The translations under genes were made by a program, and so were the position numbers. Below, one piece after another: positions 10,747 through 45,073 of a stretch of DNA of 64,000 nucleotides (position 1 is the first letter of the stretch; every line of letters starts with the position of its first letter). The DNA is from Patescibacteria group bacterium. Its GTDB lineage: Bacteria > Patescibacteriota > Gracilibacteria > UBA1369 > 2-02-FULL-48-14. The notes beneath the pieces are model-generated. The model was not told the DNA's origin. It saw nothing but the letters and a program-made list of their open reading frames with translations, and searched no databases. The DNA lies in contig JAHIVE010000005.1 of assembly GCA_018816805.1 (NCBI GenBank), forward strand, positions 39,102 through 103,101, in the 5' to 3' direction.

Positions 10747-10767
10747 TCACCCCTAAACCAAACCAAA

Positions 10768-11217: not shown

Positions 11218-11755
11218 CACCTTCCAAAACCGCCTCTTGAATATCTTTGTCCGTGATGTTCGTATCCGGGTCAACCACTTTTGCCCTATCCACTCGCACC
11301 CGGTCAAACTGCTTTGACCGCCTATAAAAATCATTCACCGCCTTCTGAAGCGCCTTATCACCCAATACCGAGCAATGAATCTTACGATTCGGCAGCCCGC
11401 CAAGCCTGTCACAAATCATCTGCGGAGTAATTTCAAAGGCCTCATCGGTCGTCATCCCTTCGCCCTCCGTCACAATAACACTCATCATTGAAGTCGAAGC
11501 AATTGCGCTGGCACACCCAAAAGTCTGCCATTTCATCGAGAGAATCCTATCGCTTGACTCATCAACTAAAACCCAAACCTTCATCATATCCCCGCACGCC
11601 GGCGAACCAACCTGCCCAAAGCCATTAAATTCGCTCTCGTCCGGTTGACCTTCCAACAAATTCTGCGGATTGAAAAAATGTTCCTTAACGGTTTCGCTGT
11701 ACATCCAGCCTCCGCCCGGCGCCATCCCATCTTTATTTAAAATTGGAAGTGTCAT
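11105..11755 (-). CDS. nifU: NifU/IscU-type Fe-S cluster scaffold protein
   Basis: IscU-domain cysteines in context (SPACGDMMKV; QTFGCASAIAS; KIHCSVLGDKAL). Confidence 0.88.
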   Translation of the reverse strand: MTLPILNKDGMAPGGGWMYSETVKEHFFNPQNLLEGQPDESEFNGFGQVGSPACGDMMKVWVLVDESSDRILSMKWQTFGCASAIASTSMMSVIVTEGEGMTTDEAFEITPQMICDRLGGLPNRKIHCSVLGDKALQKAVNDFYRRSKQFDRVRVDRAKVVDPDTNITDKDIQEAVLEGAKDLESLQAKLKVAIGNPEFLPDVEKLLHFYVSKYYG

Positions 11756-11756
11756 A

Positions 11757-13004
11757 CTAAATATATTTTAAATCACCTTGTCCTTTTTCGCGAACTTTAT
11801 CCGCGTCCAAATTCAGCGGTGAAATTTTTCTTAAAATAGAAACCACCCTTGGCACCACTTCCAAAACATAGTCAATTTCCTCCTCTGTAGTCTTCCGTCC
11901 GAGTGAAAACCTAACCGACCCATGCGCACATTCGTAGGGGAGGCCGGTTGCCAAAATTACATGCGACGGATCCAAACTTGTGGAAGTACACGCCGACCCG
12001 GTCGACGCATAAATCCCCATCTCATTCAAAAACAGCGTAAATGCTTCCCCCTCAATATCCAAAATGCTCACATTCACGTTGTTCGGAAGCCTTAGTTCAG
12101 GATGCCCATTCAAAATGGTCTTTGGAATTTTCGTTAGACCATCAATTAACTTATCGCGAAGCTCTTTTAGCCGCGCATTCTCAGTTTCACTCTCCGCTTG
12201 CGCAATTGAAAGCGCCTTTGCCATTCCAACAATATTCGCGACATTCTCAGTTCCGCTCCGTTTTCCGCGCTCCTGCCCGCCACCAAAAACCAGTGGCTGA
12301 ATCTCCACGCCTTTCCGAATATACAAAACCCCAACACCCTTTGGCCCGTAAATTTTAGACCCATTCAAAGTCATCAAATCCACACCAAGCTTTTCAACAT
12401 TTAAATCTAAAGCTCCCGCCGCCTGACAAGCATCCGTATGAAAAAGCGCCTTATGATCCTTGAGCAAAGTCCCAATCTCGTAAATAGGCTGAATTGTCCC
12501 AATTTCATTGTTGGCATACATTATGGAAACCAAAACCGTGTCATCTCGGAGAGCCGCTTTCACGTCCTCCACCCGGATCCGTCCAAATTTATCCACCGGA
12601 ACTTTCGTAACCTCAAAACCTTCTTTTTCAAGCTGCTCCGCGGGCCTCTCCACCGCATGATGTTCAATTGCAGAAATAATCACATGCTTGCCCTCCTTAG
12701 CCCTTTTCCGCGCGACTCCAAGCACAGCCATATTATCCGACTCCGTTCCACTCCCCGTAAAAATAATCTCTTCCGCTCTGCACCCAAGCACCCCGGCCAC
12801 AGTCTCCCGAGCAGCCTGCATAGCATCCGCCGCGCGCTTTCCAAGCTCATAAAACCCACCCGGATTCCCAAACTCAACCTGAAAAAAGGGCTGCATCGCT
12901 TCATAAACTCGTGAGTCAACGTAAGTCGTAGCCGCATGATCCAAGTAAATGAACTTTTTTGGCCGGCCCTTGAGTAGTTCCTGAATTTCTTGTTGAACTG
13001 TCAT
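11757..13004 (-). CDS. nifS: cysteine desulfurase (NifS/IscS family, PLP-dependent)
   Basis: YLDHAATT N-terminus, the PLP lysine region (LNGSKIYGPKGVG) and the active-site loop (SGSACTS). The track start at 13025 is TTG. ATG 13004 is preferred because a promoter pattern lies at 13026-13053. Confidence 0.9.
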   Translation of the reverse strand: MTVQQEIQELLKGRPKKFIYLDHAATTYVDSRVYEAMQPFFQVEFGNPGGFYELGKRAADAMQAARETVAGVLGCRAEEIIFTGSGTESDNMAVLGVARKRAKEGKHVIISAIEHHAVERPAEQLEKEGFEVTKVPVDKFGRIRVEDVKAALRDDTVLVSIMYANNEIGTIQPIYEIGTLLKDHKALFHTDACQAAGALDLNVEKLGVDLMTLNGSKIYGPKGVGVLYIRKGVEIQPLVFGGGQERGKRSGTENVANIVGMAKALSIAQAESETENARLKELRDKLIDGLTKIPKTILNGHPELRLPNNVNVSILDIEGEAFTLFLNEMGIYASTGSACTSTSLDPSHVILATGLPYECAHGSVRFSLGRKTTEEEIDYVLEVVPRVVSILRKISPLNLDADKVREKGQGDLKYI

Positions 13005-13025
13005 ATTTTGGTACTTTGGAAACAA

Positions 13026-13053
13026 ATTTTAGCACATTTGCAAAAGTAATTAA
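13026..13053 (-). promoter_or_regulatory. extended -10 promoter candidate for nifS-nifU
   Basis: On the minus strand: TTAATT, 16 nt, then TAAAAT preceded by TGC (TGcTAAAAT). The -10 box is at plus coordinates 13026-13031. Confidence 0.4.
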
Positions 13054-13099
13054 ACCTCAAATCCTCAAAATGTAAAGTCTGTTGCGCGCAAAATCACCC

Positions 13100-13128
13100 T
13101 TGAAACCTTTCCCGAGTCATGATCTAAT
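13100..13128 (+). promoter_or_regulatory. weak sigma70-like promoter candidate
   Basis: TTGAAA (13100-13105), 17 nt, TCTAAT (13123-13128). Confidence 0.25.
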
Positions 13129-13150
13129 TTTCTCCTTTTATAAATTCATT

Positions 13151-13327
13151 ATGCCAAGATACTTCAAACCGCACATGCGAAAACCAGGCACACACGTTCG
13201 CTACGAAGGCATAGAGCAAGGAGCAGCACCAAAACAACCTGAAAGCATCTCAACACAACCGGAAGAAATCACGGACGTAAATAATTCAACGCAAAAAGCA
13301 GTCGAAAGCACTCAAAACGAGCTTTAA
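13151..13327 (+). CDS. small hypothetical protein (58 aa from ATG 13151)
   Basis: ORF only, with no motif. The track version starts at TTG 13082, upstream of the candidate promoter. Confidence 0.25.
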   Translation: MPRYFKPHMRKPGTHVRYEGIEQGAAPKQPESISTQPEEITDVNNSTQKAVESTQNEL

Positions 13328-13356
13328 TTGCATTCTCGAATAATTCACATTAAACT
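13328..13356 (+). promoter_or_regulatory. sigma70-like promoter candidate upstream of the tRNA cluster
   Basis: TTGCAT (13328-13333), 17 nt, TAAACT (13351-13356), 30 nt upstream of the tRNA 5' end. Confidence 0.4.
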
Positions 13357-13386
13357 AGCAGCCGCGAAGGTGTCCTTTCACATTTC

Positions 13387-13714
13387 GGGCCAGTAGCTCA
13401 GTGGTTAGAGCAGTCGGCTTAAGATAAACTTTCTAAGTTGAAACTCAATATGAAAATTTATAAAGGGCCTCATGTGAAGAAATTCACATGTGAATTCTGT
13501 CAAATTCGGGGAAATCTTCTGTTGTCACAAGTCTGACAACAATGACAATCCCGAGCCAAGCCCCGCAACGCGCGGGGAAGGTGTAGAGACTAGACGGCAG
13601 GCACCCCTCAGGGGTGAAGGGATAGTCCAGCTCACAAACCCGAAAGGGATTATGAAAATAATAGTGAGAAGCATAACCGATTGGTCGAAAGTTCAATTCT
13701 TTCCTGGCCCACCA
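13387..13714 (+). tRNA. tRNA with anticodon CAU (Ile2-like elongator; Met not excluded), interrupted in the anticodon loop by a group I intron; CCA encoded
   Basis: 5' half at 13387-13419: acceptor GGGCCAG, D-arm GCTC/GAGC, anticodon stem GTCGG, then CT. 3' half at 13672-13714: CATAA, CCGAT, TGGTC, T-arm GAAAG-TTCAATT-CTTTC, CTGGCCC, A, CCA. All stems pair. G1-C72 and the anticodon stem argue against an initiator. The D-arm and variable loop resemble E. coli tRNA-Ile2 as I remember it. Confidence 0.85.
13420..13671 (+). ncRNA. group I self-splicing intron (IC3-like, no ORF), 252 nt
   Basis: Core strings resemble those of the Azoarcus tRNA-Ile and cyanobacterial tRNA-Leu introns as I remember them: GTCAAATTCGGGGAAATC (13499-13516), CCGAGCCAAG (13551-13560) and GAAGGTGTAGAGACTAGACGGCA (13577-13599). 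There are GAAA-capped hairpins at 13471-13490 and 13639-13648. The last exon nt is U (13419) and the last intron nt is G (13671). Confidence 0.85.
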
Positions 13715-13728
13715 AACACATCCATTAC

Positions 13729-14352
13729 ATGAGTATGAAACAAAAAAATGCGGTAATTATTTATCAATCCAAAAAAGGTGATCTTCGCCTAAAAGGCGAC
13801 CAACAAAAAGAAACTATTTGGGCATCACAAGCACAAATAGTTGAGATTTTTGAAGTTGATCAATCTGTGGTTTCTCGCCATATTCACAATATTTTCAAAG
13901 ACAAAGAAGTAAACAAAAAAAGCAATATGCACTCTATGCATATTGCAAATTCTGACAAACCTGTAAATTTCTATTCTTTAGACGTAATTTTAGCGGTTGG
14001 CTATCGTACAAATTCGTCCAAAGCGATAGCATTCCGCGCCTGGGCTACAAAAACACTTCGTCAGCACATGACACAAGGCTACACACTAAACAAAAAAAGA
14101 GTTAGCCAGAATCTTAATCAATTTCTAAAAGCCGTCTCTGAAGTAAAAGCACTAATACCGGCAGAATCAGGAACTGATATGAGAGAAGTACTTAACTTAA
14201 TTTCTACCTTTGCAAACACCTGGTTCTCTCTTGAAGCATATGACTCGAACAAATTTCCGGAGAGAGGACTGACAAAGAAAGAAGTTCAATTTACAACTGA
14301 AGATCTAAAGGAGGCAATTAATACTCTTCGAAAACAACTTATCAATAAATAA
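13729..14352 (+). CDS. RhuM family (virulence-island associated, putative DNA-binding) protein, short form
   Basis: The family-typical core VIIYQSKKGDLRLKGD..ETIWASQAQIVEIF......SRHIHNIF...E.........YSLDVILAVGYRTNSSKAIAFRAWATKTLRQHMTQGYTLN is present. The track start at 13681 lies inside the tRNA, so ATG 13729 is preferred. The stop TAA at 14350-14352 abuts tRNA-Ala. Confidence 0.8.
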   Translation: MSMKQKNAVIIYQSKKGDLRLKGDQQKETIWASQAQIVEIFEVDQSVVSRHIHNIFKDKEVNKKSNMHSMHIANSDKPVNFYSLDVILAVGYRTNSSKAIAFRAWATKTLRQHMTQGYTLNKKRVSQNLNQFLKAVSEVKALIPAESGTDMREVLNLISTFANTWFSLEAYDSNKFPERGLTKKEVQFTTEDLKEAINTLRKQLINK

Positions 14353-24519: not shown

Positions 24520-25182
24520 TTAGGGAAGAATTCCAAATAATTGCTTCATCTTCTCATGATAACCATAATCATACTCAAAAGCATATAGAGTGTCGCTCTC
24601 CTTTACCACAATATGAACAGTTTTAGTTTTAATTTTATGGTTAAAGTAGAATGAAGTATCTCCATAAGTATTTGTTTCATTAACTTCTCCATAATCCAAT
24701 AGTCCCATAGCTCTTTCACGAATCTTCAAATATCCCTGAAATGCACCAATTTCTGTAGGATATTTGATCTCAGAAACAGCCCCAACGTAAGTCTCATCCT
24801 CAAAAATATTAGATTGATAAACATACGCGTCAGTTTGATCTGAAAAATCAATTATTTGAAAAACCGACCCGTTAAACTGAGCCTCTTTCAAAATAGGATT
24901 TGAGAAACCCACCAACTGAAAATTCAACGCGGAAAGTTCCGGCTCAATCACAGAAATAGAACTTAAAGTTACTTCGTCTTCAGAATTCTGTTTTACAGGT
25001 TCAGTAGTTTCCTCGTCAATTTTTGGCTCTGCCAAAAGTGGCTCAGCAGTTGCAACATTAAGATCCTTAGCATTATCAATGCCACTAATATCAGCTTTTA
25101 AATAATTATGAGAAAGAATATCACCTATAAAGAAAAGTAAGGTGAGTGACAACAAGATCGAAAATATTGTGAATCTTTGCAT
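24520..25182 (-). CDS. hypothetical membrane-anchored or secreted protein
   Basis: 220-aa ORF with an N-terminal hydrophobic segment (FTIFSILLSLTLLFFIG) and no motif. Confidence 0.5.
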   Translation of the reverse strand: MQRFTIFSILLSLTLLFFIGDILSHNYLKADISGIDNAKDLNVATAEPLLAEPKIDEETTEPVKQNSEDEVTLSSISVIEPELSALNFQLVGFSNPILKEAQFNGSVFQIIDFSDQTDAYVYQSNIFEDETYVGAVSEIKYPTEIGAFQGYLKIRERAMGLLDYGEVNETNTYGDTSFYFNHKIKTKTVHIVVKESDTLYAFEYDYGYHEKMKQLFGILP

Positions 25183-25319: not shown

Positions 25320-25850
25320 ATGGAAATAAATAATAATATTTCAACGGAAGAAGAAATAACAAATGTTGCAAAGTCATTTACCAATGGGCAATTCGAAACG
25401 CGCGATTATTATTTTGAAAACCCTGAAAAAATATTTGAATTACTTGCCAAGTGGATTGAAGATGGCGCACTGGATTGCCCGGAAAAATTAATTGAGGTCT
25501 TATCCAATTTCTTTTTTGGGCAGATTTTAAACGGAATCGACACTAGTGAAATGCGATGGTTGAACAATATATTTTCTCGCTTTTCAATAGAAATTTTAGA
25601 AAAATTACATCAAATTGCACAAGAAAATAGGTCAAAAGAAGTGGAAAGAGACAGCCAACGTCCTGAGAGAAGGTTTCTGGACAATAAAGCACAGATCGCT
25701 GTTAAGCTTGAAGAAATTCTTGAAGACTGCTTATCTATAAAACAAGGAAATCCCACAGAAAGAGTGCAAAGGCTTTGGAGAAGGCGAAAAGAAGAGGAAG
25801 AGTATTATGAACAGTGCATTGCAGGAACTTCGAAAGATTGGTATTTCTAA
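25320..25850 (+). CDS. hypothetical protein
   Basis: 176-aa ORF with no motif. It lies on the strand opposite to the flanking nusG and rplK. Confidence 0.45.
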   Translation: MEINNNISTEEEITNVAKSFTNGQFETRDYYFENPEKIFELLAKWIEDGALDCPEKLIEVLSNFFFGQILNGIDTSEMRWLNNIFSRFSIEILEKLHQIAQENRSKEVERDSQRPERRFLDNKAQIAVKLEEILEDCLSIKQGNPTERVQRLWRRRKEEEEYYEQCIAGTSKDWYF

Positions 25851-26429: not shown

Positions 26430-26633
26430 TTAAAAAGTAATTAACGAATAAAGCTCGCTAAGCCCCAAATCAAGAGCCGCAATAAAAGCCGCCATAATTA
26501 TAGAAACAGCTACAACTACACCTGTTAACATCACAGCTTGTTCTTTAGTTGGCCATGTAATCTTCCCAAACTCCTCAAAAGCTCCAACAAAAAAAGCAAC
26601 AATAGGGTTACTTTTGGCTTCCTTTTTACTCAT
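26430..26633 (-). CDS. secE: preprotein translocase subunit SecE
   Basis: 67 aa with KITWPTKEQAV followed by a single TM segment, immediately upstream of nusG. Confidence 0.85.
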   Translation of the reverse strand: MSKKEAKSNPIVAFFVGAFEEFGKITWPTKEQAVMLTGVVVAVSIIMAAFIAALDLGLSELYSLITF

Positions 26634-26815
26634 TTTATTAGGGATTAGTAGTCAATTTTAAAAGGCCTCTTGGGCCATTTGTTCTTACGACATAAATATT
26701 ACGCCCAAAATTTAAAAAAAACAAGTGATTTTTCTCTCAAAATCTGCTATACTTATTAGATAAAAAACAAAAATAAATGAGATTTAAATTCCTAGAAAAC
26801 AAATATAGGACCAAC

Positions 26816-27703
26816 ATGATACTCCTTGCAGTGTGCGCTGCAGCGTTTTTTGCTTCAATTCCACACCTGGCACATGCCGCTTTCCTACCTCTTCCTTCAA
26901 CTGAAGAGCTGGACGTCCCAACTCCCACAGGAGAAACAGCAGCTGAACGTTTTGAAAGCATATTGGGGCCACTTGCAAGGTCAATTAGAATCGTTGTTGG
27001 TGCAATTGCCGGTCTATTAATAGTTGTATCAGGTATAACAATGGTTCTTGGCGGAGAAAGCGAAGAAACAGTAACAAACCAGAAAAAATCAATAATGTAC
27101 GGAGTAATTGGTCTAATTATGATAAGTGTTGCAGGTCCAATTGCAGAAGTTTTTGACTTTAGAGCTGGAAACATAGTTGCAGATGACAAACTAATGCTAG
27201 AGAGAGCTGCACTTTTTAACAGCGCAACACGGCTAATTATTACTTTTTTGAAATATATGCTGGGTTCGTTGGCTGCACTTATGTTTATCCGTGCTGGTGC
27301 AACAATGGTTATGTCAGGCCAAAGCGAAGAGGACATTACTCGAGAAAAAAAGAATCTCATTTATTCGGGTGGAGGATTAATGATGGTCATTTTTTCAGAC
27401 CTTGTTGTCCGCAAAGTACTATTTGCTACAAGCTACAACGAAGACACACAACAAACTGTTGCTGCAGTTAATCAAAACGAATTTGTAACCCAATTGGTTG
27501 CAATTACAAACATTGTGGTCAGCTTTGTAGGACCGGTGATGATGCTTGGATTGGTTATTGGAGCAGTAATGTTTGTAACCGCTCATGGCAACGAAGAACA
27601 GACGGAAAAAGCAAAAAAGATTATAATCAATTCAGTGATTGGTATTGTAATAATATATGGGGCATTCGCTCTTGTTTCAACAGTAATTAACGGAGTCTTC
27701 TAA
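26816..27703 (+). CDS. membrane protein made of three tandem VirB2/TrbC-like (CPR T4SS-pilin-like) hairpin units
   Basis: Signal peptide MILLAVCAAAFFASIPHLAHA, then three units of TM, charged loop, TM. The loops are GITMVLGGESEETVTNQKKSIMYGVIG, GATMVMSGQSEEDITREKKNLIYSGGG and AVMFVTAHGNEEQTEKAKKIIINSVIG. The track ORF starts at 26777; ATG 26816 is preferred. Confidence 0.7.
   Translation: MILLAVCAAAFFASIPHLAHAAFLPLPSTEELDVPTPTGETAAERFESILGPLARSIRIVVGAIAGLLIVVSGITMVLGGESEETVTNQKKSIMYGVIGLIMISVAGPIAEVFDFRAGNIVADDKLMLERAALFNSATRLIITFLKYMLGSLAALMFIRAGATMVMSGQSEEDITREKKNLIYSGGGLMMVIFSDLVVRKVLFATSYNEDTQQTVAAVNQNEFVTQLVAITNIVVSFVGPVMMLGLVIGAVMFVTAHGNEEQTEKAKKIIINSVIGIVIIYGAFALVSTVINGVF
26939..27700 (+). 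repeat. intragenic triplication of the pilin-like hairpin (units about 26939-27157, 27197-27424, 27476-27700)
   Basis: Read from the protein sequence. Repeat similarity is at the protein level, not the nucleotide level. Confidence 0.7.
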
Positions 27704-28668
27704 TGAAAAAATTCTCAATAATTATATGCGCGCTACTGATGCAACTCACTCTAATTTCAACTGTGAGTGCGGCAACAAGTTTTGATTATAAAGATACGCT
27801 CAAGCAATTTTCTGAAGATATTGAAACAATTAGTGAAGATCTATCCGACCAAACAGAAACAGATACGGATGGTGTAATTTCATTGCCCACTTTCCAAGCT
27901 GACGATGAGCAGGAGGGTGCAAGCACAATTGCACTGGCAATTCAAAGATTCATGAATTTTTTCAAATTGCTGGTTGCACCTCTAGCAATTTTGGCAATAG
28001 TGATCGCCGGAGTTAAATTGGTTACAGCCGGACGTGACAGCGAAGAAGCCGCAACAAAAGCAAAAAACTTCATTCGTTATGCCGCAGAAGGCCTGATAAT
28101 CATTATTATTGCTGACCAGATCATTAACGTAATTTTTGGGCCTACCGGAGAAATTTTCAGAGGAGGCCAGGCGGGCGCAGAAGAATATGGAAGAAAAACT
28201 GCACAACTTATGGAAGGAATCTACAGCTTAATTCAAGTAATTATTGGTTCAGTCGCAATTTTCATGATTGTAATAGCTGGTATGCGTTATGTGGCCGGAT
28301 CCGCTTCAGACGAACAAATTGCAACTGCAAAAAAACAAATCACTTGGGCCTTGATTGGACTTTTTGTTGTGGGAGTATCTGAATTTGTTGCAAAAGACAT
28401 TTTATTCCAGCAACAAGGAACAAAAATTGGTTTTGATCAAGCAAAACAACTTTTCGCACAGGTTACAAACTTTGCTGCAGGCACAATCGGCACACTTTCA
28501 TTCGCTTTTATGCTTTATGCAGGTTACCTATACGTGACCGCCCAAGGCGACGAAGACCAAGTTGCCAAAGCAAAAAAGATAATTTTTGGTGCCATAATTG
28601 GCATTTTGTTGGCTGGATCAGCGTACGCAATTACTTCAACCATTGTTCAACTTGATGCTTCAAGGTAA
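27703..28668 (+). CDS. second membrane protein made of three tandem VirB2/TrbC-like pilin hairpin units
   Basis: Signal peptide ...ISTVSA, an acidic linker, then three units with loops GVKLVTAGRDSEEAATKAKNFIRYAAEG, GMRYVAGSASDEQIATAKKQITWALIG and GYLYVTAQGDEDQVAKAKKIIFGAIIG. The start codon overlaps the upstream stop (TAATG). Confidence 0.7.
   Translation: MKKFSIIICALLMQLTLISTVSAATSFDYKDTLKQFSEDIETISEDLSDQTETDTDGVISLPTFQADDEQEGASTIALAIQRFMNFFKLLVAPLAILAIVIAGVKLVTAGRDSEEAATKAKNFIRYAAEGLIIIIIADQIINVIFGPTGEIFRGGQAGAEEYGRKTAQLMEGIYSLIQVIIGSVAIFMIVIAGMRYVAGSASDEQIATAKKQITWALIGLFVVGVSEFVAKDILFQQQGTKIGFDQAKQLFAQVTNFAAGTIGTLSFAFMLYAGYLYVTAQGDEDQVAKAKKIIFGAIIGILLAGSAYAITSTIVQLDASR
27922..28653 (+). 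repeat. intragenic triplication of the pilin-like hairpin (units about 27922-28140, 28192-28407, 28438-28653)
   Basis: Read from the protein sequence. Confidence 0.7.
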
Positions 28669-28702
28669 TTAACTCTATAATGCAGTGGAAAAATCACACG
28701 CC

Positions 28703-31700
28703 ATGAGAATTCGAAAACTTTTTACGGGATTAGCTCTAACGCTTATCGCAACTTCCATGTTTGCGATAGCACCGCTAGCTTCCGCAATTTCTTTTGATGT
28801 TGCGGTAGGTGATCCGGACGCTTCTCAAGGTGACATTACAGCTGCAGAATGTGCTGGCCTTGAAGACAGCTTGGCAGCTTCAATGGGTTGTAATTCGGAA
28901 GATGAAATTATTGACTTCACCACATATAGAGGAGAGCTAGATGCTCCTGACGAAAGCGGGTATGACACAGCACTAACAAAAACAAAGAGCGCCAGAGAAA
29001 TGGTCCAGTTGATTGTGAATTTTGCACTTTCATTCTTAGGATTAGTTTCCACAGTAATAATAATTTATGGAGGTGTAATGTACGTGCTGAGCCGTGGGGA
29101 TGAAGAAATGGCAACAAAGGGAAAGAAAGCAATCTCATACGCGGTTGTTGGTATTGTGATCATTTTGGCTTCTTTTGCAATTGTTAACACTCTTATTGGT
29201 GCAGCCGGGGGAGGAAACGCCGGATCAGGGGACGGCATTACCGGCGACACAATTTCCCAGGCAGGCGCTGGCTTTGACGTTGAACAAGTTCTGGATGAAC
29301 TAACCTCAATTTCTGAAGACTATGTTTACGCCTACGACACACTCATTTTTGTAAATCAAGAAGTCGAATACCTAAAATCGATTGAAATGCCACTGATTGT
29401 GGATGTAGTTGAGACGGATGTGAGCATTGGAGGAATATCAGAGTGGATCACACATCTTGGCACTGACCAAGATTTATCTGACCAATACCAACTCATTGAT
29501 GAAAACGACGTGGATGAATATATAAGTGATCTAAGGCAAGGTCTCCAAAAAATTCAAAGAGAAGTAGATTCACTAAGTGATACCTACGAGAAAGTCCAAG
29601 AACTCTACAACTATCTTAGGAGCGGCGGCTCACAAGCAAACACAACGCTAAATGAGATAGCTGAGCTACTAATACCAATGGCAAATGCATATGAAGGTAC
29701 GGATGGCTGCAGTTCAAGATCCTATTCCCACAATCCGGTATCTTTAAGTGAAGGATTCGGTATCAACTCTACTCAAACCAAAGTCAGCGAAATTGACGAC
29801 AACATCTGTCCCGCACTGGATGACATTCAAGCCGCCGCAGAATCAGACTATGTAGAGGCAGTAGATGAACTTATTAAACGAACAGACGACTTAGCAGCTC
29901 TTTTTGACACCGGTGGCCAGGAAGGCTCAACACTAAATTTGATACGCAAACGTTTCGAGCTTATCGACACGCAACTTGAAACAGCAAAGGATCGCATTAC
30001 AAACCAAACAAAAAGAGATGTAATTGGTGCAATAAATGACGCTTACGTCTTGGTTCAAAACGTAAAATTTGTTAACGCAATAATCAATACAAGTGGCACC
30101 CGCGGGAACGCACCATATATTGTTCGATTCGACGCACTTGGCTCAACTGACCCAAGCGGAAGAACAATTGATGACACAAAAATTCAATGGGATCTAACAG
30201 GAAATGGGCAATTCAATGACGCAACAGGCGCGTCCGTAAGCTGGGAATATTCTAAAGCCGGTACTTACCAGGTCGCCGTTCGCATATTTAGCACACAGGA
30301 TGACATAGCCGCAGGTATTGGAAGAATTACAATAATTGTTGAACCACGCTCATCAGCTATAGTTGTTTCAGCAGAAGCAGGGGGTGAAACAACCCAAATA
30401 GCAGATTTCAGAGAATTTCCATACATTGATAAAGACTCGTACAAGGTTACCTTAAACGAAGCACAATCCGGAATAACATTTGACGCCTCAGCATCTGAAG
30501 GGGCTAACAAAGAAAACATTGAGCAATGGGAATGGAATTTTGGTGACGGAGCAACAATTTCAGGCGGATCTGAAGTCTCATCCGTTACACACGCATACGG
30601 TGAAGCTGGCCAATATAAAGTTGAACTAACCGTCACTGACGCAGTTAGAATCCAGGACAGGCACGTTTTTGTAGTCTATGTAGATTCACCAGCCGCAAGA
30701 ATTGAAGCAACTCCGTCAACAGGCAAAATTGGAACAAAATTCAAACTTAGCGCAGGAGGCTCCACAACGGATGCGGGCACAATAGTTAGTTATCAATGGT
30801 CTGTGACCCCGGTTGGAAGTGATTCTTTTTCATCACAAACCGGCAGTAATGTTGAAGTCGAATTTGACTCGCCGGGAGTCTACACAGTTACTTTGTTGGT
30901 AGCTGATTCAAGTGGAAAAACAGACGACGCATCCCTTGACATATTAGTTGAATCTCAAACACCGGATGCAAAATTCACATATTCGGTCCCAAACGCAACT
31001 GAACCGGGCACATACCATTTTGACGCTTCTGACAGCTACGACCCTGATCCAAATGATGAGATCATATACAACTGGGATTTTGGCGGAGATGAAGGCGCAG
31101 ACTTTGAAATCTTGGACGACAACAATTTTGGTGAAGATATGACTGTTCGTTTCTTAAGAACAGGAAAATATGAAGTATCTTTAACAGTTTGTGACCAACA
31201 TCAAGAAGAATTACAAAAATGTGAAGATGCAGTTGCAGAAATCAATGTGTCCTCTGTATTAGATGTTGAACTCACAATTCAAGCAGGTGTAACAAGACGT
31301 TTGGATGAAAGCGGCGAAGAAAGCGTTAATTTTGAAGCATACAGTAGATCCGCAAACGCATTTGAAATTGACTACGGAGATGGCGAATCTGAATACACAG
31401 ACTTAATCACAAGCGGATTCGCAAATTTCACTCACGCATATACAAGAGCAGGAGTGTTTAATGTTACATTGACAGTTTATGACGAAGGGGAGGGACGCAA
31501 CTCAATAACAAGAAGAGTTTATATTGCATCCGGCGAAAACCCAATTGCAGTAATAAGTGTAGCGGCAGATGGTGAAGATATTGGCTTTGGTGACGAACTT
31601 TCAGGGAACGTACAAACACGTTTCACTTTTGACGCATCAGACTCAATAAATACTGACGGAACCACCAACAACCTCTCGTATACCTGGAATTTTGGAGATG

Positions 31701-33499
31701 GCACAACAGCCTCTCAGAAGAGCACCACAAAAACATTCGAAGAATTAACAAATTATACAGTAACCCTAACCGTTAAGGACAAAGATGACCCAAGTCTTTC
31801 AGACCAAAGCACAGTCTATATTCGCATTCAAGGAATTGACCCTGAAATAAAGGGGATCACAATAACACCTGCCTCAGCCACACTTGAAACGCCACTCAAA
31901 GTAAACGTTAGCGTTAATGCTTCAGACAAAGATGGCCGAATAAATTTTGTAAAAGGTTGGTATTATGACGTGAACGACTCTGCAACCGCCCTTGGAACTG
32001 TAATTTCAGAATCCACAAATTTCTCCCTCACAATCAACACAAAAGGTGAGCAAGACGAACAAGTCACTTACGGTTTTGCCGCTGAAGTCACAGACAATGA
32101 CAACAGAACCGTAAATTCATTCGAAGAACTCCAAGAGTCGGAAATCCCAAAACTCACAGTCACAAACGGACCAAATGACACGCCGGTCGCAAACTTTTCA
32201 GTGGATAGAACTTCATTTTTGGTAGGGGAAGAAGTTGTGTTTTCATCAACCTCATACGACCCGGATGGCGAAATTGTTGAATATGTGTGGGACGTTGAAG
32301 GTGACGGTTTCTTTAATAACGAACCTCAAGAAACACCCTCTTTTACTTATATATATCATGACGTTCACACGAGCGGCGTAAAAGTTAAATTAAAGGTAAC
32401 AGACAATGCCGGCGCAACAGCAACTTCAAAAGAACTCACTTTATATGTGGATACTTTGGCGTCACCTCCGGATGCAGCGTTCCTAGCTGACGTAAATGGC
32501 CTAAATGTAACTTTCCACGACAACTCTACATTCGACACAGCAAACCAAGCTGACTTCAAAGGAATATCTTGGGATTTTGACACAAGCGTGGACAGCAACG
32601 GAAATGGAGTAACAGATGATGATAAAGATTCTCTAGATAGAAATCCCAGCCACACTTATGACGAACTGGGCACGTACCGTGTAAGCATGACAGTAACAGA
32701 TACCTTCGGTAAGAGTGACTCAGTCACAAGAGAAGTATTGGTTGCTAACGCAGCTGACCCGGTTGCAGCTTTCACATTTAGCCAAACAGACGACTTCTCA
32801 ATTGCTTTCCAAAACAATTCCACAACTGACGAAGATGCAGGCGCGCTTGTAAGAAGCTTTGAATGGGATTTTGACACAAATTACGACTCAGATGGTGACG
32901 GAAACAACGCTAATGACGTGGATAGCATAATCAAAAATCCTGACTTCAATTATGACGACTTTGGAACATATTCGGTTAAATTAACCGTAACAGACGACTT
33001 TGGCAAAAAGGATTCTGTTACAAATAATGTAGAGGTGTCTTCTCCAATCCAACCCGTAACAGCACTACTTGCAACTGTCCCACAAACAAATGCAAACAAA
33101 CAGATAATTATGAGCGGAACCTCAGGTGACATTACAATATTCTACAATGCGGAAGGAGGTAGTGGAAATTTCACATATAGAATTGATAAAAATATCTTTT
33201 TTGACACGTCAGGGGACGGCATAAAAGATAATGACATTGATTACTCATCACGAACATCAGGCAGTTGGAGAACAAATTTTGATAAATCTTGGGGACAAAT
33301 TGTAATTAAACTCACAGTTATTGATAACACGACCGGTGACAGCTCGTTCTCAACAGCGCAAGTAATTTTTCAAGGCAGTCTAGCGGGAGCAAATCTCTTT
33401 AACGCTACACCTTCGGAAATGCTATTTTTAATAATCAGTGCACTCTTAGTAGCAATTGTAGGAGTGTCATTAGTATTTAGTTTTAAACCCGTAAAATAA
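28703..33499 (+). CDS. giant surface protein: signal peptide, one pilin-like hairpin, ~300-aa helical region, about ten PKD/Ig-like domains, C-terminal TM anchor
   Basis: The hairpin is VSTVIIIYGGVMYVLSRGDEEMATKGKKAISYAVVGIVIILASFAIV (nt about 28991-29200). PKD signatures recur (WNFGDG, WDFGGDEG, YGDGESEY, WDVEGDG, WDFDT..D..G.G). The C-terminus is LFLIISALLVAIVGVSLVF. The track start at 28685 is GTG; ATG 28703 is preferred. Confidence 0.8.
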   Translation: MRIRKLFTGLALTLIATSMFAIAPLASAISFDVAVGDPDASQGDITAAECAGLEDSLAASMGCNSEDEIIDFTTYRGELDAPDESGYDTALTKTKSAREMVQLIVNFALSFLGLVSTVIIIYGGVMYVLSRGDEEMATKGKKAISYAVVGIVIILASFAIVNTLIGAAGGGNAGSGDGITGDTISQAGAGFDVEQVLDELTSISEDYVYAYDTLIFVNQEVEYLKSIEMPLIVDVVETDVSIGGISEWITHLGTDQDLSDQYQLIDENDVDEYISDLRQGLQKIQREVDSLSDTYEKVQELYNYLRSGGSQANTTLNEIAELLIPMANAYEGTDGCSSRSYSHNPVSLSEGFGINSTQTKVSEIDDNICPALDDIQAAAESDYVEAVDELIKRTDDLAALFDTGGQEGSTLNLIRKRFELIDTQLETAKDRITNQTKRDVIGAINDAYVLVQNVKFVNAIINTSGTRGNAPYIVRFDALGSTDPSGRTIDDTKIQWDLTGNGQFNDATGASVSWEYSKAGTYQVAVRIFSTQDDIAAGIGRITIIVEPRSSAIVVSAEAGGETTQIADFREFPYIDKDSYKVTLNEAQSGITFDASASEGANKENIEQWEWNFGDGATISGGSEVSSVTHAYGEAGQYKVELTVTDAVRIQDRHVFVVYVDSPAARIEATPSTGKIGTKFKLSAGGSTTDAGTIVSYQWSVTPVGSDSFSSQTGSNVEVEFDSPGVYTVTLLVADSSGKTDDASLDILVESQTPDAKFTYSVPNATEPGTYHFDASDSYDPDPNDEIIYNWDFGGDEGADFEILDDNNFGEDMTVRFLRTGKYEVSLTVCDQHQEELQKCEDAVAEINVSSVLDVELTIQAGVTRRLDESGEESVNFEAYSRSANAFEIDYGDGESEYTDLITSGFANFTHAYTRAGVFNVTLTVYDEGEGRNSITRRVYIASGENPIAVISVAADGEDIGFGDELSGNVQTRFTFDASDSINTDGTTNNLSYTWNFGDGTTASQKSTTKTFEELTNYTVTLTVKDKDDPSLSDQSTVYIRIQGIDPEIKGITITPASATLETPLKVNVSVNASDKDGRINFVKGWYYDVNDSATALGTVISESTNFSLTINTKGEQDEQVTYGFAAEVTDNDNRTVNSFEELQESEIPKLTVTNGPNDTPVANFSVDRTSFLVGEEVVFSSTSYDPDGEIVEYVWDVEGDGFFNNEPQETPSFTYIYHDVHTSGVKVKLKVTDNAGATATSKELTLYVDTLASPPDAAFLADVNGLNVTFHDNSTFDTANQADFKGISWDFDTSVDSNGNGVTDDDKDSLDRNPSHTYDELGTYRVSMTVTDTFGKSDSVTREVLVANAADPVAAFTFSQTDDFSIAFQNNSTTDEDAGALVRSFEWDFDTNYDSDGDGNNANDVDSIIKNPDFNYDDFGTYSVKLTVTDDFGKKDSVTNNVEVSSPIQPVTALLATVPQTNANKQIIMSGTSGDITIFYNAEGGSGNFTYRIDKNIFFDTSGDGIKDNDIDYSSRTSGSWRTNFDKSWGQIVIKLTVIDNTTGDSSFSTAQVIFQGSLAGANLFNATPSEMLFLIISALLVAIVGVSLVFSFKPVK
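30077..33050 (+). repeat. tandem PKD-like domain array (approximate bounds)
   Basis: W-x-F/W-G-D-G type motifs recur roughly every 85-100 aa, each followed by a ...Y.V.LTVTD... strand. Confidence 0.7.
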
Positions 33500-33501
33500 T
33501 T

Positions 33502-35658
33502 ATGGAAGACACCACACCCCAGCCGCAAAATCCAAATTCGGAAGCACATAATCCGGAACAACAAGCAACGCCAAGCCAACCGCAAACCGAGCAAACTCCG
33601 CCACCTGTGCCAACACCCGGCACGGTCACTGAGCAAACTCCGCAGGTGCCACAACAAGATAAAAACGCAAAAAAACCAGTAAAAAAAGGCTCTGCTTTCA
33701 AGAGATTATTACTCATGCTTGGACTGGTATTCCTTCTTTTATTTGTTTTTGAATTCGTTTGGGCCTCAACCTTAGCAAAAGGCAGCGCATTAGATAAACT
33801 AATACTAACGGTTACAAATATTCAATGCGGCATTTTAGTTGGAGCTTCACTTCTGTACGCGCTCTTTGGTTTATTAAAATCATTGCTTGCAAAAAAAGAT
33901 CCATTAAAAAAGAAAAAAGCTACAAAAACAGCACTCGTAGGCGGAGTTTTCTTCCTATTATCAGCACTTCTTTGGCTTTTTGCAGTCATTTATCTTCCAC
34001 CACGCCTCACGCCGGAACAACAATATGTTTCATACATATTAACTGATCCAGCAGTGACTCTTGGCTTAACAGCACCAATTGAAGTTGAATTTGATGCAAG
34101 CCAAATACCGGTTGATACAAACGCATTTAGAGTTCTCTCATACACCTGGAATTTTGGAGACGGAGGTACTGCAAACGGCCCAACCGTTTCACATAGATTC
34201 ATCCAAAAACCACCAAATGGAACCTACAACGTAGTTCTAAAAGTATCCTTTATGGATCTGAAAACAGGGGAACAATTATCTGAAGAGTTTACTACAGTAG
34301 TAGGTATTGAAAATGAAGAAGTCGCTGCAATTTTCACCGCAACCCCTTCCAGCGGGAACGTGCCCTTGGATGTTGAATTCAACGCATCCTCATCATACGA
34401 CCCGGACGGAGAAATAGTTGCATATGACTGGGATTTTGATGGCGATGGCAGCTATGACGACGCTTCCGGAGTAATTGTTTCATACACATTCGAACAAGAA
34501 GGCGAATTTACAGTGGGCTTAAGAGTTACGGACAATAACGGACAATATGCAACCACAGCATACAAAATTGAAGCAGGTAGCGTTGGAGGACTAAGAGCAG
34601 TAATTAGCGCACCACTACAAACGGACGAAACATATAAAACAGGAGAAAAATACAAATTCTCAGGCGAACTTTCTCAAATAAGAGAAGGGGAGGTTGTTAA
34701 ATATGTTTGGGACTTTGGTGACAAATCTGACACAATTCAATCAAGAACAGCCACTCATGAATTCACAAAATCTGGCGACTACGAAGTTTCTTTAACAGTT
34801 TTTGACGTTGATGGAAATTCCCACACAGCAACACTGGAAATCAAGGTTGTTGAACAAGGAACACCACCTTCGGCAAAAATAAAAACATCTCCGGCTGCAC
34901 AAAATAATGTAACCTCAGGAGCGGTGCCATTTGAAGTTTCTTTCGACGCCTCAAGTTCAACTGACCCAGAAGATGACATTGTTGAATATGAATGGGATTT
35001 TAACAATGACGGAGTTATTGATGATTCGGGTGACAAAGTAACTTACACATATGAAGAAGTAGGTGTATATGAAGCAAAACTAATTGTCACTGACGCTGCA
35101 GGAAACTCAAACACAATCACAATTGGCATTTCTGTTGAAGAACAAGGAATCGTAGCCAGGTTGAGCGCAAACGTAACCAATGGCGAGGCACCTCTAACAG
35201 TTACATTTGATGCATCATCATCTTCGTATAAAGAAGGAAACATTGTTTCATATGAATACGACTTTGGTGATGGATCTGACGTACACGTTGGCGGCGCAAA
35301 AATTTCATACAAATATATTAATGTAGGTAATTTCACCGTAAAACTCACTGCTATAGGTGAAGATGGAACCAAGGACACAACAACTATGCAAATTGTAGTC
35401 AGACCGGTTGAGATAACTGCTTGTTTCACGGTAAATACAGACAGTGGTAGTGCACCTCTTTTTGTTGCGGTTGATCCAATATGTTCAAAAGGGACAATCA
35501 GATCATATGTATGGGATTTTGATGATGGTGAAATCAGTTTTGACAGAAAACCTGACATCCATACTTATTCCGAACCAGGGACATACACCATCTCATTAGA
35601 AGTTACCTCTGAGGACAGAACAGTAGATGTATTTGAAAAAACCATCACAGTAAGATAA
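33502..35658 (+). CDS. membrane protein: Pro/Gln/Thr-rich N-terminal tail, TM segments with a Lys-rich loop, six PKD-like domains
   Basis: N-terminus PQPQNPNSEAHNPEQQATPSQPQTEQTPPPVPTPG. TM hairpin LVGASLLYALFGLLKSLLAKKDPLKKKKATKTALVGGVFFLLSALLWLF. PKD motifs are YTWNFGDGG, YDWDFDGDG, YVWDFGDKS, YEWDFNNDG, YEYDFGDGS and YVWDFDDGE. It starts 2 nt after the upstream stop codon. Confidence 0.8.
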   Translation: MEDTTPQPQNPNSEAHNPEQQATPSQPQTEQTPPPVPTPGTVTEQTPQVPQQDKNAKKPVKKGSAFKRLLLMLGLVFLLLFVFEFVWASTLAKGSALDKLILTVTNIQCGILVGASLLYALFGLLKSLLAKKDPLKKKKATKTALVGGVFFLLSALLWLFAVIYLPPRLTPEQQYVSYILTDPAVTLGLTAPIEVEFDASQIPVDTNAFRVLSYTWNFGDGGTANGPTVSHRFIQKPPNGTYNVVLKVSFMDLKTGEQLSEEFTTVVGIENEEVAAIFTATPSSGNVPLDVEFNASSSYDPDGEIVAYDWDFDGDGSYDDASGVIVSYTFEQEGEFTVGLRVTDNNGQYATTAYKIEAGSVGGLRAVISAPLQTDETYKTGEKYKFSGELSQIREGEVVKYVWDFGDKSDTIQSRTATHEFTKSGDYEVSLTVFDVDGNSHTATLEIKVVEQGTPPSAKIKTSPAAQNNVTSGAVPFEVSFDASSSTDPEDDIVEYEWDFNNDGVIDDSGDKVTYTYEEVGVYEAKLIVTDAAGNSNTITIGISVEEQGIVARLSANVTNGEAPLTVTFDASSSSYKEGNIVSYEYDFGDGSDVHVGGAKISYKYINVGNFTVKLTAIGEDGTKDTTTMQIVVRPVEITACFTVNTDSGSAPLFVAVDPICSKGTIRSYVWDFDDGEISFDRKPDIHTYSEPGTYTISLEVTSEDRTVDVFEKTITVR
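34054..35655 (+). repeat. tandem PKD-like domain array (six units, approximate bounds)
   Basis: Six W/Y-D/N-F-G/D-D-G motifs at regular spacing. Confidence 0.7.
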
Positions 35659-42365: not shown

Positions 42366-43517
42366 ATGAAAAAATTACTCTCTTTTATACTAGTCGCAAG
42401 CATGACAATTTCCGCATGTAATAGCCAACCAACGCAATTAAATGCCAAAATTCTCAATGAATCTCTCGCCTTGGGAACCGAATACTTATTGAATAGTCAA
42501 AAAGAAGAAGGCAATTTCATTTACGAATATAATTTTAAAACAAAAGAAATCAGCAAAGATGACAATCAAGTGCGCCAAGCTGGTGCTTTATGGGGTATTG
42601 CTCTGATTCACCATTATCAACCAAGTGAAAAAACACTTTCAGCCATTGAAAAAAGCTTAAATTATTTTGAATCAATTAGTAAAACAACTGAAAACGGAGG
42701 AAGATATGTTGTGTACAATGATGGGACTTCAGGGAAAAGCGGAACAATTGCCCTGATCACTCTGGCTCTAGTTGATCTTCTTGAATCAAATTTCAAAATT
42801 AACAACCGTGAAAAATATGAATCTCAGCTGAACGAATATTTAAATTTCCTAATTTCTTTAAGAAAAGATGATGGATTATTTTACTCAAAATTCCGTTACG
42901 AGGACGGGGAAGGGTATTCCACTCCATCACCTTACGTTGACGGCGAAGCACTTCTAGCAATGATAAGAGCGGCAAATTATCTAAAAAGGGAAGACCTTTT
43001 CATCCAAATAGACGAATCAGCAGAGCAAATGTACAAAACAAACGTGCAGGAAGCATTAGAAGAAAATCCGGATAGTGACACAACAAAAGGCTTCTTTCAG
43101 TGGGGAATAATGTCTTTTTATGAGCTCTACAATAAAGATCCTCACAAATATAAAGAATACGCTCAGTACTCAATTGAACTTGCAAATTGGATGATAGACG
43201 TACACAGAACTCTGGAACGCACAAAAAACACTTCCTACGCTTATGAAGGAATTGTATTGGCATATGAATTAGCAAATCGCATGCATGAAAAATCAACGGA
43301 AGAAAAATTTAAATCAGTCATTGACCAGGGGCTTTACAAATTAACTTCATGGCAAGTTGGTTCTCAAATCCAAATAGATTATATTGAAAATCTTAAAGTG
43401 GACGACGTTCTTGCAAAAGGCGGCGTCATGAACGCTGCAGACGAACCACTGCTGCGCATTGACGTCACACAACATCAAATGCACGCAGTGATTCTTGCTT
43501 TAGAATTTGTATACTAA
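42366..43517 (+). CDS. hypothetical lipoprotein (helix-rich; fold unknown)
   Basis: MKKLLSFILVASMTISACN signal/lipobox. ATG 42366 is preferred over the track start at 42300, which overlaps the previous gene. Confidence 0.55.
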   Translation: MKKLLSFILVASMTISACNSQPTQLNAKILNESLALGTEYLLNSQKEEGNFIYEYNFKTKEISKDDNQVRQAGALWGIALIHHYQPSEKTLSAIEKSLNYFESISKTTENGGRYVVYNDGTSGKSGTIALITLALVDLLESNFKINNREKYESQLNEYLNFLISLRKDDGLFYSKFRYEDGEGYSTPSPYVDGEALLAMIRAANYLKREDLFIQIDESAEQMYKTNVQEALEENPDSDTTKGFFQWGIMSFYELYNKDPHKYKEYAQYSIELANWMIDVHRTLERTKNTSYAYEGIVLAYELANRMHEKSTEEKFKSVIDQGLYKLTSWQVGSQIQIDYIENLKVDDVLAKGGVMNAADEPLLRIDVTQHQMHAVILALEFVY

Positions 43518-45073
43518 TCTTCCAAATAGACCTCCACTTCGTTCGAATAAGTCCCGCAGCCACCATTGCCATTATATTCGCAAACTCGGACCCAATAGGT
43601 ATCAGCTCCATTGAAAGCGCTTATTGAACCAGTAGTTTCACTATCATCAGGAAAATAATTTGATCTGTCTCCAGAACTTCGACCTGGGAAAGTAGCCCCA
43701 CTTGATTGAGACCAAACCAGTTTAAAACCAAATTGTGCATCACCGGTCCATGACCAGCTCATTTCACCATCTCCTAAATGCGTTAAAGTTATCTCACTAA
43801 CTGAAGATTCAAACTCATCTGAGTCTAAAGTCACGGTGATTTCATTGGAATAAACACCACATTCTCCTCCTAAATATTCACAAACCCTAACATAATATGT
43901 CCCAGCTCCATCTTCTGCAGTCACAGTAGCACTAGAAGTACTTGGATCACTGTAATACAGATAATGATCTGTCGCGCCTAATGGGTATGTTGGTTCGCTA
44001 TCTTTAGACCAAACAACCTTAAATCCTAATTCACAATTGCCATCAATTGTCCATGTAACCTCGCCATTATCACCTGCGGATAATGCAATTGAACTTACAG
44101 CATCATCACTTGAATCATCACTTAAGTCATCATCGTCATTATCATCATCAGATTCATCTAAAAATACTGTAATTTCATTTGAATAAACATCACAAGAACC
44201 ACCAGTATATTCACAAACCCTGACATAATATGTCCCAAACCCATCAAAAGCATTCAATGTTGCTGATGAGGCGGTAGAACTACTGAAATAAAGATACTGA
44301 TCACCAACCTCCGTTGGATATGTTGGCTCCGTGTTTTTTGACCACACCACTTTGAATCCTTTGCTTGAAACACCATCTGTCGTCCAAGAAACTTTCCCAT
44401 CTCCATCATTTCTCAACGTAATTGACCGAACTTGATTGGAATCAAGATCTTTAATTTGTTCATAAGAATATGAAGCTTGCTCTCTATTCTCAGTTCGAAT
44501 TCGCCAAACCATTTCCGCCATTTCACCACGTGTCACCGGCTTACTAAACGCATCAATTGATGTTGGGATTGCATTCAAAAGTTCCAAGGCAACCACATAA
44601 TTTTGATACCAATTCTCCTGAGGCGAATTAGCTACCTGCAAAAGAAAAGCTTCAGAAATTATTTTACTGGCTTCAGCAAAGTTTATTGTCTGAGCAGGCT
44701 TAAAAGTGCCATCTGAATAGCCACTTACAATGCCCAAATCCGTGGCAGTACAAACATAAGGTGAAAACCATTCTTCTTTAACATCCAGATAACAATCTGA
44801 AGCATCACTAATCTCATACCCTTCAGACTCAACAACAATTTTCAAAAATTCAGCCCTATTAATTTCCTGTTCGGGCTTATAAGTCCCATCACCATACCCT
44901 TGAACCACTTCCTCTACCTGCAAATAATTAATTGCCTGGTAATTTTCATGCGTATCTGAGACATCAGAAAAGTGATGACCTTCGCCATCTCCGGTAGCAA
45001 AAGCTAACCCTGGAATAATTAAAAACGCTGCAGCTCCAAAAAATAAAGCTGTGATTTTCTGAAAAAATTTCAT
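43514..45073 (-). CDS. secreted protein with an N-terminal triple SLH-like module and three ~95-aa Cys-containing repeats
   Basis: Signal peptide, then SLH-like repeats (GYGDGTYKPEQEINRAEFLKIV; GYSDGTFKPAQTINFAEASKII; VTRGEMAEMVW). Three repeats follow, each ending in TY(Y/W)VRVCEY.GG.C..YSNE. A poly-Asp linker (ESDDDNDDDDLSDDSSDD) separates two of them. Confidence 0.7.
   Translation of the reverse strand: MKFFQKITALFFGAAAFLIIPGLAFATGDGEGHHFSDVSDTHENYQAINYLQVEEVVQGYGDGTYKPEQEINRAEFLKIVVESEGYEISDASDCYLDVKEEWFSPYVCTATDLGIVSGYSDGTFKPAQTINFAEASKIISEAFLLQVANSPQENWYQNYVVALELLNAIPTSIDAFSKPVTRGEMAEMVWRIRTENREQASYSYEQIKDLDSNQVRSITLRNDGDGKVSWTTDGVSSKGFKVVWSKNTEPTYPTEVGDQYLYFSSSTASSATLNAFDGFGTYYVRVCEYTGGSCDVYSNEITVFLDESDDDNDDDDLSDDSSDDAVSSIALSAGDNGEVTWTIDGNCELGFKVVWSKDSEPTYPLGATDHYLYYSDPSTSSATVTAEDGAGTYYVRVCEYLGGECGVYSNEITVTLDSDEFESSVSEITLTHLGDGEMSWSWTGDAQFGFKLVWSQSSGATFPGRSSGDRSNYFPDDSETTGSISAFNGADTYWVRVCEYNGNGGCGTYSNEVEVYLED
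43523..44431 (-). repeat. three tandem ~95-aa protein repeats (aa about 215-305, 326-416, 424-517)
   Basis: Shared pattern: G(D/E)(V/M)(S/T)W...G....GFK(V/L)VWS....PT(Y/F)P......Y........S......G..TY.VRVCEY....C..YSNE..V.L. Confidence 0.7.

Follow-up and report, generated by a model that had tools for sequence, protein, structure and literature searches.

Fused triple VirB2-like pilin hairpins encoded by two adjacent genes of a conserved pilin-PKD operon in Peregrinibacteria

The 64,000-nucleotide (nt) stretch analysed here, referred to as the window, spans positions 39,102 to 103,101 of contig JAHIVE010000005.1 from a Peregrinibacteria genome of the candidate phyla radiation (CPR). Four closely packed plus-strand genes, here called A to D, lie at 26777-35658; A and B encode proteins with three pilin-like hairpins each, and C and D encode larger proteins with PKD repeats. 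Gene A (26777-27703, 308 amino acids (aa)) overlaps gene B (27703-28668, 321 aa) through an ATGA at its stop codon, gene C (28685-33499, 1604 aa) follows B after 16 nt, and gene D (33502-35658, 718 aa) follows C after 2 nt. A first-pass annotation made from the sequence had described A and B as two open reading frames (ORFs), and both were found. Its start for A, 26816, was replaced by 26777, which is better supported, as the NCBI protein has 308 aa and orthologues retain the basic n-region. The NCBI start of B is Met13 (309 aa), and the NCBI name for both proteins is 'pilin [Patescibacteria group bacterium]'. Divergent from the operon, on the minus strand, are secE (26430-26633), nusG, a 220-aa gene, rplK and rplA. 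Scanning the operon for promoters and terminators gave no excess over chance (17 compared to 21 expected; 6 compared to 8.4).

Three hairpin units were found in each of A and B by a unit hidden Markov model (HMM) built from orthologues. They lie at nearly the coordinates proposed in the first-pass annotation, all on the plus strand and each with an i-Evalue between 1e-26 and 1e-30. In A, a signal peptide (aa 1-34, with the cleavage-type motif AHA/A) precedes unit 1 at 26930-27169 (aa 52-131, i-Evalue 2.7e-28), unit 2 at 27188-27436 (aa 138-220, 6.8e-28) and unit 3 at 27449-27697 (aa 225-307, 3.8e-27). B begins with a signal peptide (VSA/A) and a variable acidic ectodomain segment, which are followed by unit 1 at 27901-28149 (aa 67-149, 1.2e-26), unit 2 at 28165-28419 (aa 155-239, 9.3e-30) and unit 3 at 28414-28659 (aa 238-319, 1.3e-26). 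The same HMM matched one hairpin in C, at 28970-29200 (+; aa 96-172, 3.4e-19), and nothing else in the window. Just after the signal peptide of A is a conserved FLPLP motif with near-invariant L39 and P40 (aa 35-54, 26879-26938, plus strand). A similar motif, (I/F)(S/T)(L/F)P(T/N)F, lies ahead of the first unit of B (aa 59-64). These motifs might be candidate sites for processing or docking.

The units belong to the T4SS_pilin/VirB2-like family, in agreement with their earlier description as pilin-like two-helix hairpins. Pfam PF18895 (T4SS_pilin) matched A with 86.4 bits (1.4e-24) and B with 98.8 bits (1.9e-28), in three stretches each, and C with 37.7 bits (2.2e-09) in a single match at aa 105-170. 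All three proteins exceed the gathering score of 26.6. NCBIfam NF045849 also matched three stretches in A and three in B. The resulting 43.8 and 50.8 bits pass the cut-off of 40 only as the sum of three stretches, and C, at 28.7 bits, stays below it. PF04956 (TrbC/VirB2) was passed marginally by A (28.8 bits, cut-off 27.9), scored below the cut-off by C (20.4 bits) and not matched by B. A and B depart from the typical PF18895 layout in having three hairpins in 308 and 321 aa rather than one. Stand-alone relatives have 62-151 aa, and the length of 100-150 aa given for stand-alone family members in the first-pass annotation was borne out.

Several comparisons support an internal triplication in each protein. 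When the hairpins of A, B and C were aligned in pairs, 21/21 pairs scored above composition-preserving shuffles (z = 4.2-23). With profiles made from 109 A orthologues and 91 B orthologues, hhalign gave probabilities of 86-98.6% for 15/15 pairs of A and B units. The two proteins are paralogues, as had been proposed: BLASTP aligned them collinearly with 30% identity over 243 aa (E = 3e-31), and two extra alignments were out of register by one full unit (3e-15 and 3e-12). Across the two proteins, the best profile partners were A1 with B1, A2 with B2 and A3 with B3 (hhalign score 80.8 for the last), and within A the other best partner of A1 was A2. Since units pair by position across the two proteins, an already triplicated gene was then duplicated into A and B. 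Two types of unit can be told apart. A3 and B3 form a terminal type together with the C hairpin and stand-alone pilins; Smith-Waterman scores of A3 were 126 against B3 and 137 against C1, the hairpin of C. Units 1 and 2 are of an internal type. The triplication was also said to be ancient, and this holds. Besides the pairing by position, the three-unit architecture persists down to 30% identity, and at the DNA level only repeat remnants of 23-35 nt at 74% identity are left.

Could the repeats be a chance similarity of hydrophobic helices, or the product of fused gene calls or misassembly? Sequences rich in transmembrane (TM) segments inflate similarity scores, and at one surveyed locus, L041, a frameshift splits A into one and two units. 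These points speak for such an origin. The significance of every single unit and shuffle z-scores of up to 23 are hard to obtain by chance, and the conserved polar motif SEE...KAKK is in the loops, away from the hydrophobic helices. An assembly artefact is excluded because the DNA repeats have decayed to remnants and identical proteins are present in independent assemblies. The ORFs are also uninterrupted in the window, in those assemblies and in about 78 species-level loci. We therefore consider a chance or artefactual origin vanishingly improbable and take it to be excluded.

Next, the topology of the hairpins was considered. The first-pass annotation placed the loops in the cytoplasm by the positive-inside rule and counted six loops per protein. 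There are three per protein and six in the pair. The orientation itself held up, since lysine plus arginine is about threefold enriched in the loops (0.21-0.22 per residue, compared to 0.06-0.07 in the linkers). A firmer basis for cytoplasmic loops and external pre-helices and linkers is given by the signal peptides and by the extracellular-type PKD domains that follow the hairpin of C. Cleavage-type motifs were read from the sequence after the N-terminal hydrophobic segment in all three proteins (AHA/A in A, VSA/A in B and ASA/I in C). An AlphaFold2 (AF2) model of A, made with 50 homologues, has a signal-peptide helix and three long hairpins with helices at 55-91/96-125, 137-179/184-215 and 233-268/273-307 (predicted local distance difference test (pLDDT) 79.9, predicted TM-score (pTM) 0.57). 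The single unit A3 was modelled as two helices of about 42 and 35 residues (pLDDT 85.5). The layout of TrbC/VirB2 proteins, a cleavable signal peptide, two hydrophobic helices and a short cytoplasmic loop, is thus seen in the hydropathy, the AF2 helices, the cleavage motifs and the lysine and arginine content. From sequence, A and B are firmly predicted to be Sec-exported proteins of six TM helices arranged as three VirB2-like hairpins each. The external linkers and pre-helices match the loops and TM helices in conservation (majority frequencies of 0.57-0.84), and near-invariant linker residues include F126, D127, G131, R143 and F147.

Comparison with solved structures gave little. Foldseek found nothing significant in the PDB for the whole model of A (best E = 0.19, TM-score 0.15-0.25), a result that is uninformative on the packing of the hairpins. 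The single unit had no match at E <= 0.001 and retrieved generic helical hairpins; 8dfu, an archaeal (Aeropyrum) conjugation pilin/pilus structure, ranked second among them (E = 1.9, TM-score 0.55) and is the sole suggestive item. This outcome speaks neither for nor against a VirB2 fold. No pilin came up when PDB sequences were searched with profiles from the unit alignment or from the full A alignment.

C and D join hairpins, or possible hairpins, to PKD repeats. C has a signal peptide, the single pilin hairpin, eight PKD stretches (PKD_4, 2.7e-77) and a C-terminal TM anchor at 33422-33478 on the plus strand (approximately aa 1580-1598, hydropathy 2.97), after which comes a short basic tail. 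Its C-terminal region is conserved in 53/79 loci. D has a Pro/Gln-rich cytoplasmic N-terminus, a signal-anchor TM, a further hairpin of the form TM-KKDPLKKKK-TM and six PKD domains (PKD_4, 5e-86 in six stretches). Its N-terminal membrane region (33700-34026, plus strand; aa ~67-175) aligns in register with the unit profile and may include a degenerate pilin-like hairpin. The Pro/Gln-rich, low-complexity segment ahead of the first TM (33502-33700, plus strand) is about 65 aa long, predicted to be cytoplasmic, and present but variable among orthologues.

The architecture is strictly maintained in related genomes. We scanned 80 loci from species-level genomes for ORFs and HMM matches, and every locus that was long enough had a protein of three units (~310 aa), a second of three units (~320 aa) and a third with one unit plus ~1500-1700 aa. 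This 3+3+1 order has secE upstream in 73/79 loci and D downstream in 58/79, the remainder being cut by contig ends. The synteny of all four genes is retained in L003, L004 and L005, down to 32% identity in A. Full-length orthologues of A form more than 100 clusters at 90% identity, as do those of B, and the clusters carry the labels Peregrinibacteria, Peribacteria or Gracilibacteria. When one genome per GTDB species was scanned, at least 111 genomes had a relative of A. The architecture had been called unusual. Given these numbers, and the deposition of both proteins as 'pilin' with PF18895, it is not rare, and the condition under which that claim would fall, a common and already annotated architecture, applies in part.

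Fused hairpins extend beyond A and B. A unit-profile search of 1.84 billion representatives returned 65,627 family members, of which 291 reached E <= 1e-30, a score that one unit is estimated to be unable to reach. The best 150 matches were all fusions; by the local unit HMM there were three units in 100 cases, four in 25, five in 7, six in 8, seven in 5, eight in 2, nine in 2 and eleven in 1. Fusions are therefore a minority of the family, at least ~0.4% of clusters, yet widespread. Approximately one in three of the three-unit representatives is of neither the A nor the B type, including one class with an N-terminal extension of 120-320 aa. A search of a word-indexed protein database with the unit alignment returned only short stand-alone pilins. 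In the literature searched there was no mention of intragenic pilin fusions, and the surveys count separate genes. The fused form is thus in databases as a bare 'pilin' and, as far as we found, has apparently not been described. The longest fusion, P0148 (1775 aa, L090:10001-15328), has 17 stretches by HMMER and 11 units by the local unit HMM. Its neighbourhood looks archaeal, with ribosomal protein L39e immediately upstream and with Cas4/Csa1 and a NosD beta-helix protein also present, and it has no gene of a type IV secretion system (T4SS) nearby. Multi-hairpin VirB2-like polyproteins may therefore occur beyond the CPR.

Related cassettes partition the hairpins in other ways. In another Peregrinibacteria genome (L006), a 135-aa pilin and a 130-aa pilin precede a pilin-PKD protein and a PKD protein, and in L088 an 820-aa protein of eight units is followed by a 155-aa pilin, a pilin-PKD protein and a PKD protein. 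Since the module recurs with these other partitions (1+1+1 and 8+1+1), the association of hairpins with PKD proteins is a conserved feature. The eight-unit protein, P0121, was considered as a fusion of A and B, which would have been Rosetta-stone evidence, and this was ruled out; with seven near-identical internal-type units and one terminal-type unit, it is a lineage-specific, local amplification. In L006, the 130-aa pilin (10413-10805) and the N-terminal hairpin of the pilin-PKD protein (10793-14206) share a near-identical stretch of ~65 aa (VLxITNYFLGFVGLIAVVALVFFGFLWITAGGNDDQIDRGKKGIIWVALGIILILLSWAIVSFLV), which indicates a recent duplication or gene conversion between neighbours.

These cassettes bear on another reading of A and B, as polytopic channel or translocon subunits. 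They would be VirB6-like stand-ins or an unrelated transporter, with a pilin ancestry that is historical and with the PKD proteins as clients or partners. Six TM helices, the conserved charged loop motif and the high conservation of the TM helices would suit a channel, and there is weak, sub-threshold similarity to TctB and Cyt_bd_oxida_II. VirB6 homologues have also been reported as absent or undetectable in class Gracilibacteria (PMC12102498). All transporter-like matches fall under the curated cut-offs, however, and the whole-chain fold search came back empty. Neither an ATPase nor a substrate-binding partner is encoded in the operon, and the partners that are conserved resemble adhesins and bear hairpins. 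Homologous cassettes have single hairpins in the position of A and B, which is hard to square with a six-TM transporter. We find this reading quite improbable.

A second reading is that A and B are pilus subunits. They would be pre-linked VirB2-like trimers, extracted by a T4SS whose VirB4 and partners are encoded elsewhere and polymerising into a conjugative-type pilus or a short conduit, with C as a pilin-fused adhesin at its base or tip. Both ends of a VirB2-type pilin face outwards in the pilus, and in cyclic pilins they are even linked to each other, so a short linker from protomer to protomer is geometrically plausible. The membership of A, B and C in PF18895, the marginal pass of A in PF04956 and the second rank of 8dfu for the single-unit model also agree with it. 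The closest plasmid relative of the C hairpin, a 151-aa Pontibacillus protein with 29.5% identity, sits in a VirB4-containing cluster. CPR genomes have arrays of 2-11 separate genes for VirB2-like pilins (Quinonero-Coronel et al. 2025, PMC12102498; Wang et al. 2023, as cited there). The components of the T4SS are often scattered in class Gracilibacteria (PMC12102498), and a six-gene array in Southlakia is essential, where a pilus is suspected, though not shown (PMC12857230).

The neighbourhoods do not favour the pilus. No VirB4, VirD4 or VirB6 Pfam family was found within 10 kb of the cassette in L001, L003-L006 and L088, and likewise no VirB3 or VirB8 homologue. Among 24 window proteins scanned, including every ORF of at least 560 aa, none matched a T4SS machinery family. 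In addition, the C-terminal TM of C and the extra N-terminal TM of D make extraction into a fibre less likely, and the conservation of the exposed segments fits fixed contacts better than the variable exposed surfaces of pilins. The pilin match in the fold search was not significant, and the PDB profile searches brought up no pilin. Consequently, we regard a pilus built from A and B as possible but rather unlikely.

The position of the cassette on closed or near-closed genomes was also noted. It lies within about 10-40 kb of the start or the end of the record in L003 (CP064962.1, 1296629-1317561 of 1338973), L004 (7553-28482 of 1316577) and L010 (OZ246396.1, 18155-39051 of 1306353). If those three records start at dnaA, the operon would be origin-proximal in them; three other chromosomes show mid-record positions. 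Origin-proximal T4SS genes have been reported in some CPR (PMC12102498).

The reading we tentatively prefer, at a little under an even chance, is a membrane-resident hetero-oligomer of VirB2-like hairpins, fixed in its composition, to which PKD surface fibres are anchored. Once the proteins have been exported by Sec and their signal peptides removed, each hairpin would insert so that the acidic-then-basic loop faces the cytoplasm and the long pre-helix and the linkers lie outside. Hairpins from A, B, C and perhaps D would then pack laterally like VirB2 protomers into one hetero-oligomer, and this assembly would remain in the membrane. There it may root the PKD fibres of C and D, by which the cell would attach to a substrate or a partner cell. 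By analogy with fused A/V-ATPase proteolipids, covalent fusion would set the order of neighbours and the stoichiometry. The first-pass annotation had proposed a ring or fibre segment of fixed stoichiometry, and as a proposal this agrees with the strict 3+3+1 conservation. Three observations favour the membrane hetero-oligomer over the pilus: C and D have extra anchors, the exposed segments are conserved, and T4SS genes are missing from the neighbourhoods covered. A bolder version, which we think unlikely, is a self-assembling organelle independent of any T4SS, in which VirB2-like hairpins have been co-opted, in Peregrinibacteria and in the related cassettes elsewhere, into a closed hetero-oligomeric membrane ring or stub with a set order of subunits that carries giant PKD fibres.

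Several points weigh against the membrane hetero-oligomer. The operon is the sole basis for proposing co-assembly, and membrane residence and the adhesive role are likewise inferred. For the way in which the hairpins of A pack against one another, the AF2 model gives no more than moderate confidence (pTM 0.57). The D hairpin reached an hhalign probability of only 31% against the units (E = 5e-4) and was not significant by hmmsearch. The number of hairpins per cassette varies by lineage (3, 7 or 10), and therefore no single universal ring size is implied. The 151-aa Pontibacillus gene lies 4 kb upstream of a VirB4-like ATPase, with a peptidoglycan hydrolase also there, and pilin genes occur near virB4 in 1,135/1,948 CPR assemblies (PMC12102498). 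Given such ties of the family to real T4SS clusters, A and B could still be handled by a T4SS from another part of the genome.

Comparison with known systems places A and B close to the CPR VirB2-like pilins of PF18895. They share with these the domain family, the signal peptide, the pre-helix, TM1, the acidic/basic loop and TM2, as well as CPR hosts and the occurrence of divergent copies side by side, with ~25-30% identity between copies. In CPR arrays the copies are separate genes, whereas here they are fused, three per polypeptide, in two paralogues. Moreover, their copy number is invariant in the lineage, and they are coupled to pilin-PKD fusions rather than located near virB4. The Mbov_0395/MMCAP2_0565 family of pilin-like conjugal transfer proteins (NF045849), from integrative and conjugative elements and plasmids of monoderms, consists of single hairpins of ~80-150 aa in VirB4-containing transfer clusters, and the Pontibacillus protein is one of its members. 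A and B pass its cut-off with three stretches each, but lack that context. With VirB2/TrbC/TraA (PF04956) and the archaeal Ced/Ted pilins they have in common a hairpin with its termini out and its loop in and a cleaved signal peptide. The classical pilins are monomeric or cyclised single hairpins dependent on an adjacent T4SS, while A and B are known here from sequence and have no significant sequence or fold match to solved pilins.

Fused rotor-ring proteolipids of A/V-type ATPases include the duplicated V-type c subunit, the triplicated K subunit of Methanocaldococcus jannaschii and the 13-hairpin subunit of Methanopyrus kandleri. The likeness to A and B is an analogy of principle: an oligomerising hairpin is fused in tandem, which would fix the stoichiometry and let the copies specialise. 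Homology was not found, with no ATP-synt_C match at E <= 1 and with PKD proteins and secE-nusG as neighbours, not ATPase genes. The loop motif also differs, and the partners of A and B are adhesin-like surface proteins.

Other genes in the window were noted. The 220-aa protein (24520-25182, minus strand) between nusG and rplK has an N-terminal hydrophobic segment and no Pfam match, and its gene interrupts the otherwise near-universal secE-nusG-rplK-rplA cluster. As a homologue is present in 66/79 related loci, it is a lineage-wide insertion. A 176-aa ORF on the opposite strand (25320-25850, plus strand), between the 220-aa gene and nusG, is likewise without a Pfam match; phmmer found no homologue in the loci of other species, so it looks strain-specific or is maybe no gene. 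A 584-aa ORF (1261-3015, minus strand) has no Pfam match at E <= 1e-5 and comes immediately after an FtsA/PilM-like gene (3025-4278), on its downstream side. Its product may be a so far undescribed partner in a division or pilus system. Two proteins of ~515 aa have SLH domains (7800-9341, minus strand, 9.2e-23; 43514-45073, minus strand, 3.7e-25). A wall-anchored S-layer is therefore probable, and a surface fibre or pilus would need to cross it.

Few surface components of CPR bacteria have been shown to be essential, and VirB2-like pilins, in Southlakia, belong to them. In A and B the CPR VirB2-like pilin takes a fused form of fixed number, and the conserved pilin-PKD cassette that holds it is unlinked to VirB4. 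The cassette is a natural experiment, with covalently ordered hairpins, a hairpin number that does not vary among more than 100 species, fusion of one hairpin to a giant adhesin-like protein and no T4SS ATPase gene nearby. Because fusions of 3 to ~17 units exist, counts of CPR 'pilin genes' underestimate the number of hairpins. If A and B form a pilus, fused trimers would limit the symmetries open to it and offer a starting point for structural studies. If they assemble without a T4SS, many CPR 'T4SS pilin' annotations would have to be re-read as a general membrane-scaffold module, and only in that case does the importance of the finding become high. A T4SS-independent organelle would be a previously undescribed surface-attachment structure of the CPR and the second case, after the rotor-ring proteolipids, in which the fusion of hairpins fixes stoichiometry.

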